Shown in pieces: positions 7,501 to 61,086 of a DNA stretch of 64,000 nucleotides. The stretch comes from a virus. Its lineage: Duplodnaviria > Caudoviricetes. Numbering within the stretch: the stretch's first letter is position 1; each line of letters starts with the position of its first letter. The translations under genes were made by a program, and so were the position numbers. Below the pieces are notes generated by a model that saw nothing but the letters and a program-made list of their open reading frames with translations, did no database searches and had not been told where the DNA came from. The stretch spans positions 9,786-73,785 of the IMG/VR virus record IMGVR_UViG_3300044259_000026. One strand, given 5' to 3'.

Positions 7501-10500
7501 ATGAGAATCCCCTTGGTTCCATTGTGGCTGCCCTGAAAGATTCTGCTGCCCTCACCCAGTACATCGGTAAATCCTTGGCTCACAACTACACCAAGGACAT
7601 TGCTGCTGCTTACCAGACCTACCTCACTTCTGCTGAGAGCATCAAATCCGCATTGGAAGAAGGCCTTCAGGAATACCTGAACAAGCCATACTCCCGTTCG
7701 GACAAGCGCACTCACCGTGAGCTGATTCTGGAAAATGGTGAAGTCACTCAGACCAATGGTCGTCTGCTCAAAGGTGTGGACCTGCAAGCTACTGTCCGTG
7801 GTAAGGCTCTGGCCATTACTCAAGTGGACGGGGAACAGATCCAATACAACCCTGAGCTGCTCGAACCTGCGGTACTGGCTGGCATGCAATGGATGCTGAC
7901 TGCTGACCAGTTTGGTTCGGTCCTTGATGCCAAGGACATTGCATCGATCACCGGCCTTCCGGTTGAATCTGTGTCCAAAAGCATGATCGAAGATTTGAAC
8001 CAAGGGATGAGCGTCATCGAAGCCAAGCGTACCTTGGCCCAGAAGATCAAATCCTACTGGGGTGTGGGTAACAACCCTAACGGGTTCATCGGTAACCAAG
8101 AGGGTATCCCGGAAGCCATTGCTGCCGAGATCCTCCGTGTGTTCCGTGACAGTGACTTGCTGGAAGAGAAGTCGTTCTATGTGTCTCAGGAAGGTTTGTT
8201 GATCGAGTACGTCAAGGGGGAAACCAAGCCTCCGAAGTCGGCTCGTACCATTGACCGCCTGATCCCTGTGCAACTCCCTAAGGAATCCCCTCTGAAGGAA
8301 TTCCCATCGGCAATTGAACAAGCTGTGATGATTGAGCCGGAAGGCATCAACTACATCGGCGGTGCTATGCCCCCTGTGGCCCGCACCCAGCTTCGTCAAC
8401 CGCTGGTGGAGAACACCCCTCAACAGCTGGAAGCCATCAAGAACGAGCAAGAGACTCCATACTTCGTTAACCCGAACATGGCTGGATTCTACTCGGCACT
8501 GGGTATCGACAATATCCTGAAGCTCTTTGCTGCCGGTTCGTTCGACCCTGATAGCATGAACGTCAACCATGCCAAGTCTCTGGACGGTCAGAACCGTGGA
8601 ACCGTTGCTGCCTTCAACCACCTGATGGGTGTTCTGGCAGAGACCGGCAACGTAGGCCAGAAGGCTGGGACTGCATTGGATCAAACTCCAATTCGCTATG
8701 CCTTCAACATGACCCGGGTTGCCCGTCTGCAAATGCTGGGTAAGTACAACCCTCAGGCAAACAAGCTTGTCCGTGAGGCCATCCTGCCTAACCGTTCTAC
8801 CTTGGATCTGTCGAGCCAGAACAGCCAAGACTGGACCCGATTCGCATTGGGTGCTGGTCAGCTGCTGGGTATCAAGGTTCACAAGATGACTCAGGATATG
8901 GCCAAGGCCAAACTGCAAGCCATGTTCGACGGCGGCCTGTCCCGTACTGTGGAAGCACTGCGTGACTGGACCCGTGACTTTGATGTGTCGAATGTCATTC
9001 AGCCTGCTGCCATGCTGCCGGATGATCTGGTGAACAACCTGATCGAAGATTTCAAGGCTGCTGGTGCTGATCTGACTCCGATGGGTCTGCATGCTGTCAT
9101 GGAATACGCTCGCTACCTGAATAGCGAAGACCGTTCCAAGTTCGAGACTACCCTGTACCTCGAAGCTGACGGCGTGACCAACGGTCCGATCAACGCCATG
9201 GTCCTGTTCACCACCGGCAAGTTCACCCCTCGTTGGATCAAGAACATTGCCAAGGGCGGTCTGTTCTTCAACCGTCCGGGTGCCACCGTCAACAGCAACA
9301 ACGTTGAAGTGGATAACCGTGACCTGTACCAAGCGACCACTGACCAGCTCCAAGTGAACTTGGATATGCTGCGTCAACGCATGGCCGGTAACCCTCAAGC
9401 CAATGAGCAACTGAATCACCTGTTCACCCTGATGGATGAATTCCTGGGTGGTGATCTGACTCTGGATGAAGAGGGTAACCTGACCCTGCAACGTGGCATT
9501 GCCAAGAACCCACTGACCATTACTATCTATGGTTCGGGTGCTGGTGGTATCGCTGGCAAGATGGTCAAAGCCATCACTGATGCTGTCTACGAGCGCATGT
9601 CTGACATCGCTATCAATGGTGGTCGTCTGCCTACCAAGGCTGCTGCTGCATTGAACCAACTGCTCTCGACTGAAGCTTCTGTGGATAGTGAAGGCAACGT
9701 TCGCTTCAAGCCTACTCAGTCTGACCGCGAAGACAAATACGATCCGAAGACCTTCACCTTCACCAAAGGTGAGTTGAAGAACATGCAGTCCAATATGCTG
9801 CACATGTTCGTCAACCCGATGCGTGAAGCAATTGAAGAGACTGTGGGTCAGCCTCTGACCGGTACTGCTGAGATGCTGCGTCAAGCCACTCAGGTTCAGT
9901 CGATTGTGATGGAGCATGCCTTCAAGCAACAGGTCGAAGCTGAGCTGGAGAAGAAGCGTCAAGATCCTAACTGGCGAGAAGGTGACTTCCTGACCCAGAA
10001 GGAAATGGCCTCCATCTACAAGAAGCTGGAGCACTTGGCTCCGTATGTGAAGACTGGGACTCAAACCTTCTTCATCGCCGGTAGTCAATCTGTGGATGTT
10101 GGTTCGACCAACTTCGGTCATGCTTTGAACGACCAGTTCCGTACCCCTGCCTTTGTGCATGGTCCGGCAGATGCTGGTGTTGCGGGTATCCCGTTCATGA
10201 ACATCGGTGCTGGTGACGGCCAGATGATGCAGAACATCTCCGTGGCTGATGGGGCGCCTACTGGCACCCTCAAGATCTTCGACGGTATGAACATGCGTCT
10301 GGATCAGATCGAGTCCGGTTCTCTGGTAGCCAACAAGGCTGTCTATGACAGCTGGATGGGTAACCCACTGAAGGCTGTCTTCGAGTCCTACGATCAGTTC
10401 CTGCGTAATGCTGACCTGTCGAAGTTCCCGAAAGCTACTCAGGAACAGCTGAGCCGTGCCTTGTTCGGTCTGGATACTAGCGATGCGTCGTTGGACGATA

Positions 10501-53731: not shown

Positions 53732-54058
53732 TTACTCCTTAGAGTCTTCAGGACGCAGCAGACTTGTGAAGCGCTGATAGGCTTCGTTGTAGTGAGCAGC
53801 ATGACGCTCGGACTTCAGGCAGAACTTGTCGGCCTTGATGGCGAGAGATGCACGTTCCTCGGATTTCTCCATGATGAGGTTCTCGATGAAGGTCTCTTTG
53901 TCTGCGATCTGACGGATGCGTTGGTTCTCAGCAGCTTGACCTACGAACGAGGTGGCCATGCCTACAGCAGTGGATACAGTATCCAGAGTTGCAGTCACGG
54001 TATTTGCAGTCGAGCTTACGGTGTTGAGCAGAGCGCTGAAGGTCATACGAGTGGACAT
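53732..54058 (-). CDS. gp1: N4 gp1-like early protein (108 aa)
   Basis: MSTRMTFSALLNTVSSTANTV...; first gene after hairpin promoter; GGAG RBS. Confidence 0.8.
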   Translation of the reverse strand: MSTRMTFSALLNTVSSTANTVTATLDTVSTAVGMATSFVGQAAENQRIRQIADKETFIENLIMEKSEERASLAIKADKFCLKSERHAAHYNEAYQRFTSLLRPEDSKE

Positions 54059-54091
54059 AGGATGGACTCCATTGATTGAGGGCATGATTGC

Positions 54092-54110
54092 CATACGATG
54101 CGCAGCATCG
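54092..54110 (-). promoter_or_regulatory. Virion RNAP hairpin promoter (P1-like), +1 at 54092, transcribing leftward
   Basis: Template C-ATAC-GATGC-GCA-GCATC-G; same geometry and loop as 53308. Confidence 0.85.
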
Positions 54111-54266
54111 AAGTGTAATGAACACGGGGGTAGGGTCATGGAGTGTATCCAGTGTACCGGGGGGGTACTTGGCAATTGGGGCGGGGCGCCGGAGGTGTAC
54201 AGTGCCTTGGAACATAGCTATGATGCCTACCAGAACCTTTCTCCTACATAATCTGCGGAGCCTGCC

Positions 54267-54452
54267 ATGGACCTTAGCGTCAAGACCGTACACATCCTGA
54301 CTTGCCCTAAATGTAAAGAGATGCACGAATGGGAGGTCCACCGAAATGACCCAGAAGACCCACGGGTCTGGTTTGTGAAGCCGAAGGGGGGCAATCAGAT
54401 CTGTGGCCTGTCTGGCATGGCTGACCACCGAACCAAGATTCTCGCGGGGTAA
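54267..54452 (+). CDS. Small CxxC protein (61 aa), isolated plus-strand gene
   Basis: GCGGAG RBS; CPKC motif. Confidence 0.5.
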   Translation: MDLSVKTVHILTCPKCKEMHEWEVHRNDPEDPRVWFVKPKGGNQICGLSGMADHRTKILAG

Positions 54453-54460
54453 CCTTCCTG

Positions 54461-54500
54461 AAAAAATATGCAGGAGGATTTTGCCTATCGCTCCTGCTAT
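54461..54500 (-). terminator. Terminator closing the paralog array
   Basis: GCAGGAG-(14 nt)-CTCCTGC with minus-strand TTTTTT. Confidence 0.7.
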
Positions 54501-54715
54501 TTAATCTGGAGGTAGATGCACGCTTCCCCGTCGACTCTGCCTATCCTAGGCTTATGGGGCACGATCCCCTCCAGTAAAGCCATGCCCAACAAGAGGTCGT
54601 ATTGTTCTTGGTTCTGGACAACCATTTGGACATCCCAAGCACGGGCGTACAGTTCAGCCCGCTTATAGGAAATCTCCTGCCACTTATCGTCGCCCCTTGA
54701 GAAGTAGAGCTTCAT
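54497..54715 (-). CDS. Array paralog 14 (72 aa)
   Basis: Core MVVQNQEQYDLLLGMALLEGI. Confidence 0.8.
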   Translation of the reverse strand: MKLYFSRGDDKWQEISYKRAELYARAWDVQMVVQNQEQYDLLLGMALLEGIVPHKPRIGRVDGEACIYLQIK

Positions 54716-54942
54716 TCGACCACCTTAACGTAGAGGGTGTAGGGCTCTTGGCCTATGCGGATTTGGGATGCGTCTTGTAGATCGAAACCTATGCCCATCA
54801 TCAGCTGCCAAGCCAAGACCATGGGAATGTCATCCTTATCAGAGGCGAAGTACCACATGTTGGAAGAGGTCAGGGTTTGAATTTCCCCTTCGTGAAATGC
54901 CCGAAGGTTGCCACCCCGGTGCAGGGCATACTGTAGTTCCAT
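54712..54942 (-). CDS. Array paralog 13 (76 aa, divergent)
   Basis: Core WYFASDKDDIPMVLAWQLMMGI; ends YVKVVE. Confidence 0.7.
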   Translation of the reverse strand: MELQYALHRGGNLRAFHEGEIQTLTSSNMWYFASDKDDIPMVLAWQLMMGIGFDLQDASQIRIGQEPYTLYVKVVE

Positions 54943-54946
54943 TGGT

Positions 54947-55168
54947 TCACTCCTCAATACGAACGTAGACTTGGTACTTGGACAGGAACTCTGTATTTTT
55001 GACGATGACTGGAATGTCCACCCCTTCGATTATTTTGAGCACTTCAAGGATCTCTTTGTCTCCTTCGTGCTGGACTACGATGTCCCGTCCTCGGTCGTAG
55101 AGATGTTTTAGGGTAGTGGTGATCCAGGCATCTTCTTTCGCATATCTCAAGCGGTACTGTATCTGCAC
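54947..55168 (-). CDS. Array paralog 12 (73 aa)
   Basis: Core IVVQHEGDKEILEVLKIIEGV. Confidence 0.75.
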   Translation of the reverse strand: MQIQYRLRYAKEDAWITTTLKHLYDRGRDIVVQHEGDKEILEVLKIIEGVDIPVIVKNTEFLSKYQVYVRIEE

Positions 55169-55171
55169 ATC

Positions 55172-55405
55172 TCACCCCACGAATAGGAAGACACAGGAGT
55201 CAAGATCCGCGGCCTTTACTTCAGACCGTAGGATGATGCGTTTGAAATGAGTTCCATCCACCAACATCAAAGTCTCAAGGAGATCCTTTTGTTCTTGGCT
55301 CTCCATGACAAAGATCCAAGCGTCAAAGCGGGACAGCTTTCGGACAGTCTCCACAGACATGGGCTGGTAAGGGTGGGAGACATTGCAGGTATAGAAGTAT
55401 TCCAC
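55172..55405 (-). CDS. Array paralog 11 (77 aa)
   Basis: Core IFVMESQEQKDLLETLMLVDGT. Confidence 0.8.
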   Translation of the reverse strand: MEYFYTCNVSHPYQPMSVETVRKLSRFDAWIFVMESQEQKDLLETLMLVDGTHFKRIILRSEVKAADLDSCVFLFVG

Positions 55406-55408
55406 GGT

Positions 55409-55624
55409 TCACTCCCTGAAGTAGATTTTGACGGACCAGTTGTTGGGGGTGGCTATCTGGACCTCAGGTAGTTGGGTGCCTGCGACCAAGGATAGGCCCA
55501 GCAAATGGTCATAGTCTTCTTGGTTCCTGACATGGAGTGGAGCACCGAACTGTCTACAGAACCGAAGACACTCTTCGAGGGAAGTCTCCCGGTCACCATC
55601 AGGATGACTCAGCATGAGTTTCAT
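55409..55624 (-). CDS. Array paralog 10 (71 aa)
   Basis: Core LHVRNQEDYDHLLGLSLVAGT. Confidence 0.8.
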   Translation of the reverse strand: MKLMLSHPDGDRETSLEECLRFCRQFGAPLHVRNQEDYDHLLGLSLVAGTQLPEVQIATPNNWSVKIYFRE

Positions 55625-55626
55625 AG

Positions 55627-55863
55627 CTACTCCGGCAGGGCTGCAATATGGCAGGGAGTCAGTCCAGTGGTGTTCTCATCTACCCCATCCAGAAGGACTT
55701 GGAGACGGACGCCCCAGACAAGGGCAGAACCAAGGAGATAATCCTTCAGTTCTTGCGTATCTACGATGATCGGCTCGTAGACATAAGGTGATTCCATGAT
55801 GTCCTTCAAGTCGATAGGGAAGGACTTGATGGAACCAAGGGAAACCTTCTGAATGAGTTCCAT
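55627..55863 (-). CDS. Array paralog 9 (78 aa)
   Basis: Core IIVDTQELKDYLLGSALVWGV. Confidence 0.8.
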   Translation of the reverse strand: MELIQKVSLGSIKSFPIDLKDIMESPYVYEPIIVDTQELKDYLLGSALVWGVRLQVLLDGVDENTTGLTPCHIAALPE

Positions 55864-56081
55864 TACTCCACTACCTTGACGATCACTTCGTTCATAGCGA
55901 TAGGTTGATCGTCATCGATACGGACATAAGCCTCGACCCCATAAACTATAAGTAACGCTTGAAGTAGATGCTCTTGGTTTCGGTCGAAGACGACCATATG
56001 GACCCCTTTCCAGCGGGGACTTTCGAGATCCATAGTCATCCAATGGGTGGTATAACGGGAATGGGTATACAAGGTTTTCAT
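55863..56081 (-). CDS. Array paralog 8 (72 aa)
   Basis: Core MVVFDRNQEHLLQALLIVYGV; ends IVKVVE. Confidence 0.78.
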   Translation of the reverse strand: MKTLYTHSRYTTHWMTMDLESPRWKGVHMVVFDRNQEHLLQALLIVYGVEAYVRIDDDQPIAMNEVIVKVVE

Positions 56082-56105
56082 AAGGACTCCTTAAATATGA
56101 GAGAG

Positions 56106-56312
56106 CTAAATAGGACGTACCCACCACCCTGTGAGTTTGACAGTGTTGAGTGGGATCTGAAGGTTCAGTTCTACACCATCCAGTAGGCACATGCCCAACA
56201 GGATATCCAAGGTCTCCTGATCCTTCACCCATAAGGTGGTTGTCTTGTTGAGGTCCCGAAGCTCAGCTTGAGCCCGATACTCAGAATTTACAGCTTGGTA
56301 TTCTATTTGCAT
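56106..56312 (-). CDS. Array paralog 7 (68 aa)
   Basis: Core LWVKDQETLDILLGMCLLDGV; ends GWWVRPI. Confidence 0.8.
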   Translation of the reverse strand: MQIEYQAVNSEYRAQAELRDLNKTTTLWVKDQETLDILLGMCLLDGVELNLQIPLNTVKLTGWWVRPI

Positions 56313-56527
56313 GGCCGAATCCACCATCCGAGCTTAGGCTTGACAAGGGAGTAGGTGATTTTGAAGGCTAGTCCGTGAACCAATAGAAGCCCTACCAGCT
56401 CGTCCAGATCATCTTGGGACTGGGCGTGCAGATTTAGGGTTTGCTCTGGTCCCTGCTTTAGGATGCCTAGGTCTACTGCCGTCCATCCGAAGCAAGACTC
56501 CGATACGTGACAGACTTCTACGATCAT
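56303..56527 (-). CDS. Array paralog 6 (74 aa)
   Basis: Core LHAQSQDDLDELVGLLLVHGL; ends GWWIRPCK. Confidence 0.8.
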   Translation of the reverse strand: MIVEVCHVSESCFGWTAVDLGILKQGPEQTLNLHAQSQDDLDELVGLLLVHGLAFKITYSLVKPKLGWWIRPCK

Positions 56528-56778
56528 GTGACTACCCTCAGCTCTACAGTTTTCCCAGCTTCATGTGGTTGCCATGGGTCTAGTCGAATTTCGACCCCCT
56601 CAAGTAGGGAGTAACCCGCGATCATTTCGTGATGGATGTGGTTTGTGGCGAAGCATGGTTTGAATTGGTCAGTACCCTCGTAGAGGATGTTGTCGTTTTG
56701 AAAGGTGGCTAGTTCTTCTAGGTCTCGGAGAAAGCTGCCGTCCCACTCTTGCTTTGTAAAGCGGTACTCAATTTTCAT
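56524..56778 (-). CDS. Array paralog 5 (84 aa)
   Basis: Core CFATNHIHHEMIAGYSLLEGV; GGAGG RBS. Confidence 0.75.
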   Translation of the reverse strand: MKIEYRFTKQEWDGSFLRDLEELATFQNDNILYEGTDQFKPCFATNHIHHEMIAGYSLLEGVEIRLDPWQPHEAGKTVELRVVT

Positions 56779-56792
56779 GTGTCACCTCCAGA

Positions 56793-56835
56793 AAAAGAAA
56801 AGCCCCAGAAGGGAGTCCAATCCTCTGGGGCTTTT
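56793..56835. terminator. Terminator within the array
   Basis: AAAAGCCCCAGA...TCTGGGGCTTTT with minus-strand TTTTCTTTTT. Confidence 0.8.
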
Positions 56836-57040
56836 CAGTGTCAGGTATTCAAGGGTCCTGACTACACTGTCTATCCTATCGAACTGGCAGACCATGACTG
56901 AATCTGCGTAACCTAGGCAAGTGCCTAGTTAAGGAGCACCCGACCGATAGACTGAAGAGGTTATATCCCACCTACTCCTGGGGCCGTTATCACATGACCG
57001 CATCGTTACCGCAGCAGCCATGTGAGTCTAAATCTAGTTT
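56795..57040 (-). ncRNA. Candidate structured ncRNA inside the array
   Basis: About 270-nt gap with multiple nested helices, an upstream extended -10 (TGcTAATAT) and a downstream terminator. Confidence 0.55.
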
Positions 57041-57046
57041 TGAATA

Positions 57047-57286
57047 TTAGCAACAGAGTTCTACGAAGCAGTAGGGTCTGCCGTTTGCCTGGAAGACTGC
57101 ACCTTTGGATAGATCCAAGATCTCAACGGTGATCTGAACCCCCAGAAGAAGCAGGTAACCATCGAGCAGATCTTTCTGATCTTCCGTGTCCACAAACCAG
57201 ATACGACTCTTCACTGAAGGTATGGTGAGAAACCACTCCACGCGATTTACGTGTGTGAACTTGGAGCCTACTAGTCTCATGTTCAT
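57047..57286 (-). CDS. Array paralog 4 (79 aa)
   Basis: Core WFVDTEDQKDLLDGYLLLLGV. Confidence 0.8.
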   Translation of the reverse strand: MNMRLVGSKFTHVNRVEWFLTIPSVKSRIWFVDTEDQKDLLDGYLLLLGVQITVEILDLSKGAVFQANGRPYCFVELCC

Positions 57287-57561
57287 GTCAGTTCCTTAAT
57301 CTCCACAACCCAAAGAAAGACTATGCATTTGGACTCCCCACCCCCTCCGGTGTAGTCCAAGGGGATTTCATGAGGCCCAACGACCACATCAAACTCAAGG
57401 CTGTAGATCATGGCGTATGCTTCGAGGGTAGCCTTCTCAGCTTCCGACCTCACAACATACTGATTCTTGATGGCCCACTTAGGAGGCGGGGCAAAGATCT
57501 CATCTGTGGTGCAGACCAAGAAATGGTTTGCTCCCGGGAATCTCTTACGAATCTCGATCAT
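57283..57561 (-). CDS. Array paralog 3 (92 aa)
   Basis: Core YVVRSEAEKATLEAYAMIYSL; AGGAGG RBS. Confidence 0.75.
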   Translation of the reverse strand: MIEIRKRFPGANHFLVCTTDEIFAPPPKWAIKNQYVVRSEAEKATLEAYAMIYSLEFDVVVGPHEIPLDYTGGGGESKCIVFLWVVEIKELT

Positions 57562-57827
57562 ATGTTGATCCTCCTGAGTGGGTCCCATGTGAGGAACAAC
57601 CCGTTTCTGTTATAGACCCAAGGATTGGTGGATGCCTGTTCGGTGACCTCTCTGATCTCCAGCTCTCGGCCATACAACAGGGACATCCCCTCCAAGAAGT
57701 CAGCCTCAGCTTTCGACTCCACAAGAATCAATGGAACCCTCTCCAGCGAGTAGAACTGGAAAAGGAACTCAAGAGTGGACCTTTCGTAAGGGCGAGACCC
57801 AACCCGGAACCACAGATCAAAGTCCAC
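57558..57827 (-). CDS. Array paralog 2 (89 aa)
   Basis: Core ILVESKAEADFLEGMSLLYGR. Confidence 0.8.
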   Translation of the reverse strand: MDFDLWFRVGSRPYERSTLEFLFQFYSLERVPLILVESKAEADFLEGMSLLYGRELEIREVTEQASTNPWVYNRNGLFLTWDPLRRINI

Positions 57828-58086
57828 GGAGGTTCACCCTCCAAGTTGTGAAGACAATGGGCAATAGGCGCATATCCTCTGGAGCCTTACTCCTAACAAC
57901 CCCCACCCACTCACTATGGGTGTCCACCTGAATATTCCGCCCATAGGCCAAGGCCCAGCCCAAGATCTCATCTTTCTCTTCTTGGTTCTGGCAGAGAATC
58001 TGGAAGCGCACCTTGTAGTTGAAGACTTGCTCCTCCGTCCACTGGGCACCGTTCATCATCCCGTTGATGTGGTTGTAAAACAGCAT
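57817..58086 (-). CDS. Array paralog 1 (89 aa)
   Basis: AAGGAG RBS before ATG 58086; core ILCQNQEEKDEILGWALAYGR. Confidence 0.8.
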   Translation of the reverse strand: MLFYNHINGMMNGAQWTEEQVFNYKVRFQILCQNQEEKDEILGWALAYGRNIQVDTHSEWVGVVRSKAPEDMRLLPIVFTTWRVNLRGL

Positions 58087-58338: not shown

Positions 58339-58572
58339 GTGGACAATCAACACAAGCAGATCAAAGGTTACCGTGATCTCAGCCAAGCTGAGATCGATGG
58401 TATGAACTCGATCAAAGCCGCCGAAGAAGACATTGCCCAACTGTGGAAGCAGATCGGCAAGATCGAAGGCGTAGACCCTCGTGCCCTGAACATCGCACGA
58501 ACCAAGCTGCAAGAAGGCTTCTCTTGGTTCGTTCGTGCTGTCGCCAAACCTGCCGATCCTTTCTCGGAGTAA
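58339..58572 (+). CDS. acb2: Anti-CBASS cyclic-nucleotide sponge, Acb2-like
   Basis: MDNQHKQIKGYRDLSQAEIDGMNSIK (Y11, K26) and R.L.IART.LQ.G....RAVA.P match the Acb2 family pattern. Confidence 0.88.
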   Translation: MDNQHKQIKGYRDLSQAEIDGMNSIKAAEEDIAQLWKQIGKIEGVDPRALNIARTKLQEGFSWFVRAVAKPADPFSE

Positions 58573-58798: not shown

Positions 58799-59470
58799 AT
58801 GCTCACCAAAGACCAAGTAGAAAAGGCCCTTCCTGCTCACCTGAAGTCTGCCGTTACCCCGCAGTTGGTTAATACCATCAACACGGTTGTGGCCGACCCT
58901 CTGGTAGCTGAGCAGGTACGGGAGAACTTCCTGTCCTACAGCCATGTGCTGCAAGACGGTAAGTACAAGATGGAGGACTACCTGAACGCAGTTCAGTACG
59001 TGTCCTACAAGCTGATGGGCAAAACTAACCAACAAGCCTATGAGCTGACCTTCCCGCAACGGATCATCAACCTGACTGCTGCTGGTAAGGGCAAGAAAGA
59101 AATCTCGGCCTATGTGGCCATGTACAACAAGAATCAGCTGGTCAACAAGATCCTTGAACAGAGCATCATCCCGACTTGGGTCTTGAACCAAGACATCTAT
59201 CAGGATGCTATCAACGTTCAGGCTGACTTGATGTACAACGCCCAAAGCGAGAAGGTTCGCAGTGATGCGGCAAACTCCTTGCTGACCCACTTGGCCAAGC
59301 CGAAAGATACGAACTTCCAGATCGCTGTTGATGTGAAGGAATCTTCGGGTATGAACGAGATGCGGGAACAGTTGACCAAGCTGGCACAGATGCAGCAGGA
59401 GTTGATTGCCAACGGTATCTCTACCAAAGACATTGCCGGGCAACGGCTGTTTGAGAACGGGGAAGGCTGA
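58799..59470 (+). CDS. N4 gp69-like protein (putative terminase small subunit)
   Basis: Immediately upstream of TerL; SEKVRSDAANSLL.HL motif. Confidence 0.75.
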   Translation: MLTKDQVEKALPAHLKSAVTPQLVNTINTVVADPLVAEQVRENFLSYSHVLQDGKYKMEDYLNAVQYVSYKLMGKTNQQAYELTFPQRIINLTAAGKGKKEISAYVAMYNKNQLVNKILEQSIIPTWVLNQDIYQDAINVQADLMYNAQSEKVRSDAANSLLTHLAKPKDTNFQIAVDVKESSGMNEMREQLTKLAQMQQELIANGISTKDIAGQRLFENGEG

Positions 59471-61086
59471 TGAGCGCACCACCATTCGAGAAAAAACAGA
59501 ACCCCTTGGTCAAACAGAAGCTCGATGACTGGTTGAACCAAGTGGATTACAAGGAGCTGAACAGCCCTTCGTATACCCCATCCCAGTTCGCCCTGATCTT
59601 TATGAACTTCATCAAGCTGGTGAACGGTGCTCAGGGTGAGAGCCACAAGACCCCACCCGTCCACTTGAAGATGCTGGACAAGATGGTTGGTGGTCGTGAC
59701 TACATCGCCAACCTGTGTTTCCGGGGTGCCGGTAAGACTGCTGTGTTCATGGAATACCTGACTCTGTTCATTGCTTTCTATGGTCACCTGCCGGAGTTCG
59801 GCAAGATCGAAGGGATGATCTACGTCTCGGACTCCATGGATAACGGTGTGAAGTCGGCTCGTAAGAACATCGAGTTCCGGTACAACAACTCGGAGTTCCT
59901 GCAGAAGTGGATTCCCAAGGCAACCTTCACGGACAACTACCTTGAGTTTCAGAACGCTGAAGGTCACCGTCTGGGTGTGAAGATGTTCGGTGCTAAGACC
60001 GGCCTTCGTGGTACGAAGATCTTCGGTAAGCGTCCTGTTTTTGCGGTACTCGATGACTTGGTTTCTGACGATGATGCCAAATCCAAGGCAGCCATGACGG
60101 CGATCAAGGACACGGTCTATAAAGGTGTGAACCACGCACTAGACCCAACCCGCCGTAAGGTCGTTTTCAACGGTACGCCGTTCAACACCGACGACATTCT
60201 GATCGAGGCAGTAGAGTCGGGTGCTTGGGATGTGAACGTCTGGCCAGTCTGCGAGAAGTTCCCTTGCACTCGGGAAGAATTCGTAGGCGCATGGGAAGAT
60301 CGTTTCACCTTCGAGTTCATCCAAGAACAGTATGAGATGGCCGTGAACACGGGCAAGCTCGCCTCCTTCTATCAGGAGCTGATGTTGCGGATTACCTCGG
60401 AAGAGGAGCGGTTGGTTCAAGATGCGGAGATCGGCTGGTACTCCCGAGCTGACCTGTTGCGGAACAAAAGCAACTTCAACTTCTACATCACCACCGACTT
60501 TGCCACCTCTGCCAAGCAGACGGCTGACTTCAGTGTGATCTCTGACTGGGCGTACAACTCCAATCAGGATTGGTTCTGGGTAGACGGAATCTGTGAGAAG
60601 CAGACCATTGATAAAACCTTCAATGACCTGTTCAAGCATGTGTCCATGTACTCGCCCCAACAGGTGGGTATCGAGGTGACCGGTCAACAGCAGGCGTACA
60701 TCAAGCTGCTGCAAGGCGAGATGATGAACCGGAACATCTGGTTCAACTTTGCCTCCAGTGAGAAGAGCGGTGAGCCTGGCATTCGACCAACCCAAGACAA
60801 GCTGTCCCGATTCAACATGGTTGTTCCTTGGTTCAAGGCTCGGAAGATTTACTTCCCAGAAGAGATGCGTCACTCCGTAATTGTGGGACAATTCCTTGAG
60901 CAGATCCGGCTGGCAACTTCCAGTGGTCTGAAAGGAAAGGACGACTGTATCGACACCATCTCGATGCTGGCGTATCTCACTCCTTGGAAACCCTCTGAGT
61001 CTGCACCTGTGCATACTGACAGCGGAGTCTTTGAGGAAGATCTTGAACCAGAGGACATCAGCCCGATGTCTTCCTACGTGGTGTAG
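59470..61086 (+). CDS. terL: Terminase large subunit
   Basis: Walker A FRGAGKT; Walker B AVLDD; GTP; RNase H-like TTDFA...DDCID. Confidence 0.93.
   Translation: MSAPPFEKKQNPLVKQKLDDWLNQVDYKELNSPSYTPSQFALIFMNFIKLVNGAQGESHKTPPVHLKMLDKMVGGRDYIANLCFRGAGKTAVFMEYLTLFIAFYGHLPEFGKIEGMIYVSDSMDNGVKSARKNIEFRYNNSEFLQKWIPKATFTDNYLEFQNAEGHRLGVKMFGAKTGLRGTKIFGKRPVFAVLDDLVSDDDAKSKAAMTAIKDTVYKGVNHALDPTRRKVVFNGTPFNTDDILIEAVESGAWDVNVWPVCEKFPCTREEFVGAWEDRFTFEFIQEQYEMAVNTGKLASFYQELMLRITSEEERLVQDAEIGWYSRADLLRNKSNFNFYITTDFATSAKQTADFSVISDWAYNSNQDWFWVDGICEKQTIDKTFNDLFKHVSMYSPQQVGIEVTGQQQAYIKLLQGEMMNRNIWFNFASSEKSGEPGIRPTQDKLSRFNMVVPWFKARKIYFPEEMRHSVIVGQFLEQIRLATSSGLKGKDDCIDTISMLAYLTPWKPSESAPVHTDSGVFEEDLEPEDISPMSSYVV

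Follow-up and report, generated by a model that had tools for sequence, protein, structure and literature searches.

The genome of a tailed virus raises the question of what a long run of very small, mutually related genes at one end of a phage chromosome represents, and what such a run might do. The window, meaning the whole stretch of DNA analysed here (64,000 nucleotides, positions 9,786 to 73,785 of IMG/VR record IMGVR_UViG_3300044259_000026), carries on its minus strand, at 54497-58086, 14 consecutive co-oriented open reading frames (ORFs) of 68-92 amino acids, numbered m01 to m14 in the order in which they are read. Profile comparisons indicate that this array is an expansion of the family typified by gp70 of phage N4, of which it is a remote member, and that it is interrupted by a structured RNA that accompanies the same family in other phages.

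An ORF check, together with a Shine-Dalgarno-like site upstream of each of the 14 genes, agrees with the first-pass annotation of this DNA, which had described small co-oriented genes that mostly overlap or abut. For three genes a downstream start is preferred, as judged by Shine-Dalgarno sites and homologues: m03 at 57561 (92 amino acids), m07 at 56312 (68 amino acids) and m13 at 54942 (76 amino acids). With these corrected starts, neighbouring genes overlap by at most 11 nucleotides or are separated by 2-24 nucleotides, the one exception being a gap of 268 nucleotides between m04 and m05 that divides the array into two blocks, m01-m04 and m05-m14. The gap folds much better than shuffled sequence (z -4.6), in keeping with the earlier description of a 4+10 split by a structured RNA, and the array does have terminators of its own, one after m04 (at the 3′ end of the RNA element) and one after m14. 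A scan for the sigma-70 consensus yielded background level only, and no array promoter was placed. The junction between m12 and m13 (54940-54949) has the form stop-spacer-start, TGA-ACCA-ATG. All 14 proteins are mildly acidic, with isoelectric points of 4.4-6.6. The genes and the closing hairpin are listed here, with expect values (E) from the leave-one-out searches described below them.

57817..58086, minus strand: m01, 89 amino acids; first gene of the array; leave-one-out E 1.5e-6
57558..57827, minus strand: m02, 89 amino acids, GTG start; leave-one-out E 5.9e-6
57283..57561, minus strand: m03, 92 amino acids from the MIEIR start; leave-one-out E 0.0056
57047..57286, minus strand: m04, 79 amino acids; last gene ahead of the RNA element; leave-one-out E 2e-6
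56524..56778, minus strand: m05, 84 amino acids; leave-one-out E 0.014, top non-training ORF
56303..56527, minus strand: m06, 74 amino acids, GWWIRP end; nearest paralogue m07
56106..56312, minus strand: m07, 68 amino acids from the MQIEY start, GWWVRP end; leave-one-out E 7.4e-7
55863..56081, minus strand: m08, 72 amino acids, VKVVE end; leave-one-out E 4.8e-4
55627..55863, minus strand: m09, 78 amino acids; leave-one-out E 3.3e-4
55409..55624, minus strand: m10, 71 amino acids; nearest paralogue m14 (pairwise E 1.5e-7)
55172..55405, minus strand: m11, 77 amino acids, GTG start; leave-one-out E 1.4e-6
54947..55168, minus strand: m12, 73 amino acids, GTG start; leave-one-out E 4.9e-5
54712..54942, minus strand: m13, 76 amino acids from the MELQY start, VKVVE end; weakest member, leave-one-out E 0.44, top non-training ORF
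54497..54715, minus strand: m14, 72 amino acids; last gene and best family match, leave-one-out E 2.5e-8
54461..54496, minus strand: terminator-like hairpin (GCAGGAG/CTCCTGC followed by a T-run), directly past the m14 stop codon, read from the sequence

That all 14 genes constitute one family is indicated by profile hidden Markov models (HMMs) trained on 13 members at a time and searched against the 874 stop-to-stop ORFs of at least 40 amino acids in the whole 73.8-kb genome. In all 14 trials no ORF outside the training set scored better than the omitted member, with E between 2.5e-8 and 0.0056 for 12 members and the higher values listed above for m05 and m13, while the best unrelated ORF in these searches scored 0.26-3.9. 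Most members are already linked by pairwise phmmer comparison, the nearest pairs within this phage being m06/m07 (pairwise E 7e-8), m05/m13 and m10/m14, and an HMM of the full family detects no copy beyond the 14 among the genome ORFs. The paralogues are approximately 15-35% identical to one another. DNA-level repeats are absent from the array, which argues that the copies are old and not recently amplified. The core motif described in the first-pass annotation is visible in two alignments and includes one nearly invariant glycine; the accompanying proposal of an old tandem expansion of a single scaffold, whose core is conserved and whose ends are hypervariable, is borne out by the leave-one-out searches, by the alignments and by the tree presented below.

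The link to N4 gp70 comes from several comparisons. Alignment with hhalign of a profile built from seven gp70 orthologues to the array family profile gives a probability of 96.9% and E 1.7e-10 over 74 columns, and the alignment takes in the C-terminal hydrophobic F-T-T motif of m01 (LLPIVFTTW..LRGL, compared with FFTKIP in gp70). The family HMM matches N4 gp70 (E 1e-4), Axy13_070 (2e-7) and Axy22_074 (2e-6). N4 gp70 corresponds to PHROG 7213, to which no function is assigned; when members were scanned singly against PHROG, m14 matched phrog_7213 weakly (E 0.0033), the other 13 had no match to it on their own, and m08 had a weak match to phrog_3369 (E 0.05). It is on the profile-profile match, the HMM matches and the m14 match that the assignment to the gp70 family is based, and m01 appears, from both position and sequence, to be the orthologue of N4 gp70 itself. 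A profile of gp71 (PHROG 9160) aligns weakly with the array family (E 0.029, probability 1.7%) and with the gp70 profile (E 0.0042, probability 8%), both alignments being in the right register on the motif L-P-x-S..H..G..L.G.

A profile search of 1.84 billion representative proteins returned 44 matches, about 28 of which are true relatives, all 73-107 amino acids long; the others were the window's own proteins and two long matches, P0019 and P0028, which are repeat proteins unrelated to the family and were dropped. The contigs of the relatives are pieces of N4-like phages on which several family members stand side by side, and on this sequence evidence the gp70-like family is restricted to the N4-like phages (Schitoviridae). 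No family was found in Pfam (E up to 1 for 10 members and up to 0.1 for the other 4), the matches of m01 there being spurious. There was likewise no match to the array by megablast or blastn among 50,697 phage records and none by tblastn with m14; a homologue search with N4 gp70 as query returned gp70 only, a sequence profile search of the PDB gave nothing below E 0.49, and a literature search found no paper on gp70 function. To our knowledge, the right-end genes of N4-like phages have never been assigned a function.

The number of copies varies widely among relatives. Matches to the family HMM give one copy in N4, inbricus/Axy13, Axy12, Axy22 and JWAlpha and three to four in G7C, pSb-1 and HN01, where further matches lie 3′ of gp70 (G7C gp71.1 and gp71.2; pSb-1 gp31, gp32 and gp34; HN01 ORF92 and ORF93). 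There are four in Ebordelon, five in Zuri (gp97-101, all matching), seven in Meara, seven in Erwinia phage UCB24 and at least eight on metagenome contig L006. The 14 copies described here are the largest number among the genomes compared. Given these remote N4 gp70 relatives and the smaller arrays in Zuri, Ebordelon, Meara, UCB24 and metagenome contigs, the initial view of the locus as an undescribed system is not sustained.

In a tree of 85 non-identical members, the copies are not sorted by phage but interleave with those of other phages. The alignment behind it is short and support is low, and only groupings also backed by pairwise similarity are to be trusted. In this tree, m01 is placed beside the leading genes of the UCB24 and Meara arrays and ten metagenomic representatives, and m02 beside Zuri gp98 (of which Ebordelon has an identical copy), a gene on contig L004 and P0025; further orthologues are P0015, P0017 and P0018 for m03 and P0022 for m08, and m14 groups with P0016. 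Because the copies of different phages interleave in recognisable orthogroups, most of the duplications probably predate the split of these phages, and copy number appears to have changed later through gain and loss, within a range of 1 to 14.

Predicted structures provide a second view of the family. AlphaFold2 models of m14 (from a 41-sequence family alignment) and of m01 (from a separate 12-sequence orthologue alignment) have predicted local distance difference test (pLDDT) scores of 85.9 and 91.2 and predicted template modelling scores of 0.70 and 0.81, respectively. The two share a beta-beta-alpha-beta-alpha-beta core and, beyond it, a last strand; the C-terminal part is longer in m01 and contains an additional helix there. 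The conserved motif comprises, in m14 as in m01, the third strand, a helix starting at the N/D/S/T position and a glycine at the end of that helix. N/S/T/D-x-x-E at a helix start is a classical capping box, and since this pattern sits at the helix start in the models, the motif is read as a determinant of the fold: a capping box with a glycine C-cap, probably structural rather than a site of assembly or catalysis. On this reading each gene would encode a small, mildly acidic, soluble alpha/beta protein whose motif builds the fold in the order strand, N-capped acidic helix, glycine cap and strand, while the N-terminal hairpin and C-terminal tail vary freely.

Searches with these models place them among N4-like proteins. 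The best matches in a viral structure library are nearly all uncharacterised proteins of N4-like phages, including Zuri (four proteins), Axy22, Klebsiella phage KP8, JWDelta and JWAlpha, and they therefore lend independent support to the family assignment made from sequence. A Foldseek search of the PDB gave no solved relative of either model. The best VIA-align scores, Z 4.5 for m14 (LysR/periplasmic-binding subdomains) and Z 5.9 for m01 (RecA-like helicase subdomains, root-mean-square deviation 3.0 over 80 residues), are below the level at which that tool is meaningful and were not counted as fold assignments; a Pfam scan of the members found no helicase or ATPase family. The ESM Atlas offered no usable feature match and a mixed set of structural neighbours (TusA, PilN/GspM and methyltransferase pieces). 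The R3H-like fold tentatively suggested in the first-pass annotation receives no support, as there is no Pfam match and the R and H residues are absent. A homodimer prediction for m14 returned a score of 0.00 without a verdict, which is evidence neither way.

Between the two blocks of the array lies the RNA element:

56779..57046, minus strand: non-coding structured RNA, with a pseudoknot core at 56929-56987 and a terminator at approximately 56795-56845

A 5′ hairpin leads into an H-type pseudoknot core, then a CTCCTT box, more hairpins and, last, an intrinsic terminator, directly past which are the Shine-Dalgarno site and ATG of m05. A like gap is present 3′ of gp70-type genes in N4, G7C, JWAlpha, Axy12, Axy13, Axy22 and HN01, and also in Zuri, Ebordelon, Meara, UCB24 and contig L006. 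The pseudoknot core could be recognised behind gp70-type genes in 11 other phages (12 in total, from several subfamilies), where the RNA is approximately 200-270 nucleotides long and maintains a common order: a CCCC/GGGG stem (CCGCC/GGCGG in N4 and G7C), a loop, the CTCCTT box, one or two variable hairpins and the intrinsic terminator, past which, within some 10-25 nucleotides, come the Shine-Dalgarno site and start of the next gene. Five bases of the loop pair with the five that immediately precede a conserved downstream CAG. This pseudoknot helix has 5/5 pairs in ten of the 12 phages and 4/5 in two, through nine different sequences, and when its strands are swapped between phages the mean drops to 3.2/5 pairs; pairs were counted by anchored parsing, since MAFFT misaligned the core. 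No Rfam family matches the element. Its coordinates in other comparison sequences include the following.

L010:7372-7449, RNA element
L015:3297-3373, RNA element
L017:3378-3459, RNA element
L001:9113-9171, RNA element
L008:8322-8379, RNA element
L007:8316-8373, RNA element
L006:6388-6445, RNA element
L013:1593-1661, RNA element

In layout, the RNA is riboswitch-like or leader-like; it may be a cis-regulatory leader of the downstream block, or else it may derive from the 3′ end of the upstream transcript. The CTCCTT box resembles the 3′ end of 16S rRNA. In Burkholderia phage HN01, a tRNA-Asn gene (L013:1476-1551) lies directly past the pseudoknot core, at the place occupied by variable hairpins in the others.

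The position of the array within the genome bears on what it might do. The contig measures 73,785 bp, with ends that overlap by 127 nucleotides; that is, it was assembled as a circle, of which the window covers 64 kb. The large terminase (59470-61086, plus strand) shares 85% protein identity with that of Pseudomonas putida phage Zuri and 72-79% with those of other N4-like phages. The place where the linear genome would end is indicated by one further feature.

53820..54215, minus strand: homology to direct terminal repeats (blastn, 69-70% over approximately 400 nucleotides, to both Zuri repeats and the Ebordelon repeat)

Because of this homology, the physical end of the genome is placed about 290 nucleotides downstream of m14, which would make the array the rightmost coding region of the linear genome, just inside the right terminal repeat. 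The array diverges from the terminase side. The same layout, with the gp70-type gene or genes between the gp69/terminase side and the terminal repeat, occurs in N4, G7C, JWAlpha, Axy and Zuri, and the array shares its direction of reading with the early and middle genes. An earlier placing of the array upstream of the first virion RNA polymerase promoter accordingly holds on the circular assembly only; on the linear genome the array lies near the right end. In N4, the left end enters the cell first and transcription helps to pull in the remainder. If that order holds here by analogy, the array would be contained in the last DNA to enter the cell, which argues against a first-line early role. 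An ORF of 61 amino acids with a CPKC motif (54267-54452, plus strand) is located between the array terminator and the terminal-repeat homology. The DNA of the window is present in two sediment metagenome runs, from which it may originate, and no RNA run is listed among the public runs.

On the other side of the array, a small coiled-coil gene is divergent from m01 and is followed by a gene that bears out the earlier report of an array standing back to back with acb2:

58339..58572, plus strand: Acb2-like cyclic-nucleotide sponge gene (PF24729, E 1.9e-17), divergent from the array

The array members themselves do not match PF24729 (Acb2) or related nucleotide sponges. Two N4-like metagenome contigs, L004 (222-920) and L006 (4402-5205), encode a Phage_gp49_66 + Sequestin protein on the terminase side of their arrays, and on L004 an Acb2-like gene also stands beside the array; the window, by comparison, has Acb2 and is without a Sequestin match.

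What the array does can be approached through these surroundings. The reading favoured here, at a probability of roughly 0.45, is that the gp70-like proteins form a diversified panel of accessory proteins that bind host or defence factors and are expressed in the middle phase of infection, the second block being under RNA control. Each paralogue would have a host or defence factor of its own to neutralise or retarget, the choice of target being set by the variable N-terminal hairpin and C-terminal tail. The array is read as two translationally coupled blocks, m01-m04 and m05-m14; the RNA and its terminator would set the level of transcription that reaches the second, and the array would be akin to the terminal multigene families of large viruses. 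Tandem, diverged, terminal paralogues of varying copy number are the usual signature of host-interaction genes. The reading is preferred because Acb2 adjoins the array; as further context, Acb2 or Sequestin-domain genes adjoin arrays on the two metagenome contigs, and the corresponding locus of phage LUZ7 carries 29 small ORFans (PMC3715699), in a rightmost region spanned by mid-infection transcripts (PMC9163698). Several points weigh against it. The middle-phase timing is an analogy borrowed from LUZ7, whose right-end genes belong to a different family. The vicinity of Acb2 is guilt by association, with Acb2 on the other strand and in the late-gene direction, and the last DNA to enter the cell is a poor place for first-line counter-defence. 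Finally, a single gp70 occupies a fixed place across several N4-like subfamilies, which is more suggestive of a conserved phage-internal role than of an arms-race gene.

This last point leads to the chief alternative, doubtful but still to be reckoned with, in which gp70-like proteins serve a phage-internal task at the genome end (candidate tasks lie in replication, in the processing of concatemers, in packaging or in modulating one of the three RNA polymerases) and the additional copies are sub-functionalised variants. A gp70 orthologue is indeed fixed next to gp69/terminase and the RNA in N4, G7C, JWAlpha, Axy12, Axy13, Axy22 and HN01, and the authors of the LUZ7 study suggest, from middle-phase timing, a replication-related role for its right-end cluster (PMC9163698), although LUZ7 is without the gp70 family at this locus. 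The weak likeness of m01 to RecA-like helicase subdomains points the same way, but its Z score falls short of what the tool treats as meaningful and the proteins have no nucleotide-binding or catalytic motif; moreover, a copy number of 1-14 and so low an identity between paralogues are both unusual for a core function. It is considerably less probable that the paralogues are subunits of a hetero-oligomer joined through the conserved helix. That helix is common to all copies, and tight coupling, often with overlapping stop and start codons, would favour stoichiometric co-expression; yet many relatives have a single copy, close relatives differ (five in Zuri, four in Ebordelon), and copy number varies freely, which makes a fixed heteromer unlikely, while in both models the conserved residues seem to serve capping and packing within one molecule. 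The slimmest chance attaches to small proteins that are packaged in the virion and ejected together with the DNA, as the internal proteins of other phages are. The Ebordelon record labels the last member of its array (L009:7782-8036) a virion structural protein, but its identical counterpart in Zuri is listed as hypothetical, no structural family of PHROG or Pfam matches, the G7C annotation marks gp67 as virion-confirmed and not gp70 to gp71.2, and the array shares strand and direction with early and middle genes rather than with the late structural genes.

Returning to the panel of accessory binders, a bolder and rather unlikely extension would make the gp70-like scaffold a modular inhibitor platform with 14 targets, and the pseudoknot RNA a sensor, riboswitch-like or protein-responsive, that gates the ten-gene block by terminator read-through. 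Were this combination true, the genome end of N4-like phages would contain a counter-defence cassette that is both regulated and expandable. If the paralogues are target-specific inhibitors, the array would amount to a ready-made set of small binding proteins sharing a stable fold. Phages of the N4 type occur widely, with candidates for phage therapy among them, and the link to gp70 of the model phage N4 makes the question of function testable in E. coli. A literature search found no description of gp70-type arrays with this RNA. What is new here is the largest copy number, the occurrence in a host lineage other than that of the coliphages, a 4+10 layout and the orthogroup structure, together with the Acb2 neighbour, the parallel with LUZ7 and the count of pseudoknot covariation; the gp70-like family is also accompanied by a conserved structured RNA that no RNA database contains.

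Comparison with known systems can be made most directly with N4 gp70 and its orthologues (G7C gp70, JWAlpha gp87 and Axy13_070). Shared with the array are an M-x-L-F/Y-Y ... W-x-E-I start, the strand-helix-glycine core, the same locus and direction (the first rightward gene past gp69/terminase, before the terminal repeat) and the same conserved RNA element following the gene. N4 gp70 differs in having one detectable copy rather than 14 and in a length of approximately 92-106 amino acids as opposed to 68-92, and the C-terminal hydrophobic F-T-T motif of the gp70 type is kept, among the array copies, only in m01. The arrays of Zuri, Ebordelon and Meara (Pseudomonas) and UCB24 (Erwinia) share family, locus and RNA with the present one and contain orthologues of m01 and m02, but comprise 4-7 copies in place of 14. 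The position of the RNA also differs, as it comes after the last gene in Zuri and Ebordelon and after the fourth in Meara, UCB24 and this phage, in which ten further genes are found 3′ of it.

Multigene families, or gene accordions, at genome ends are known from the multigene families (MGF) of African swine fever virus (ASFV) and from the terminal host-range genes of poxviruses. Like them, the array consists of tandem, diverged paralogues near a terminus, with a copy number that varies between relatives. For those families, roles in host range or immune evasion have been established by experiment; the array, for its part, displays no sign of recent amplification, being free of DNA-level repeats. 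A positional parallel is the right end of LUZ7, where a "cluster of 29 small genes" has been described upstream of the right terminal repeat (PMC3715699). LUZ7 gp87-gp115 resemble the array in locus, in their divergence from an N4 gp69-like gene, in direction and in small size. Most of these 29 ORFans (L019:6699-12346) are mutually paralogous (E 7e-25 for gp102/gp104, and below 1e-5 for many pairs) and share a motif like L-x-x-K-Y-x-K-E, but they constitute another family, the gp70-family HMM giving a best E of 0.74 against all 29 proteins, and the RNA motif was not found there with the pattern used. A different family thus appears, from these sequence comparisons, to have expanded independently at the same locus in LUZ7. 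Because the gp70 family occupies this place in the present phage and an unrelated family occupies it in LUZ7, the right end of Schitoviridae genomes is a general site for the expansion of small paralogous genes.

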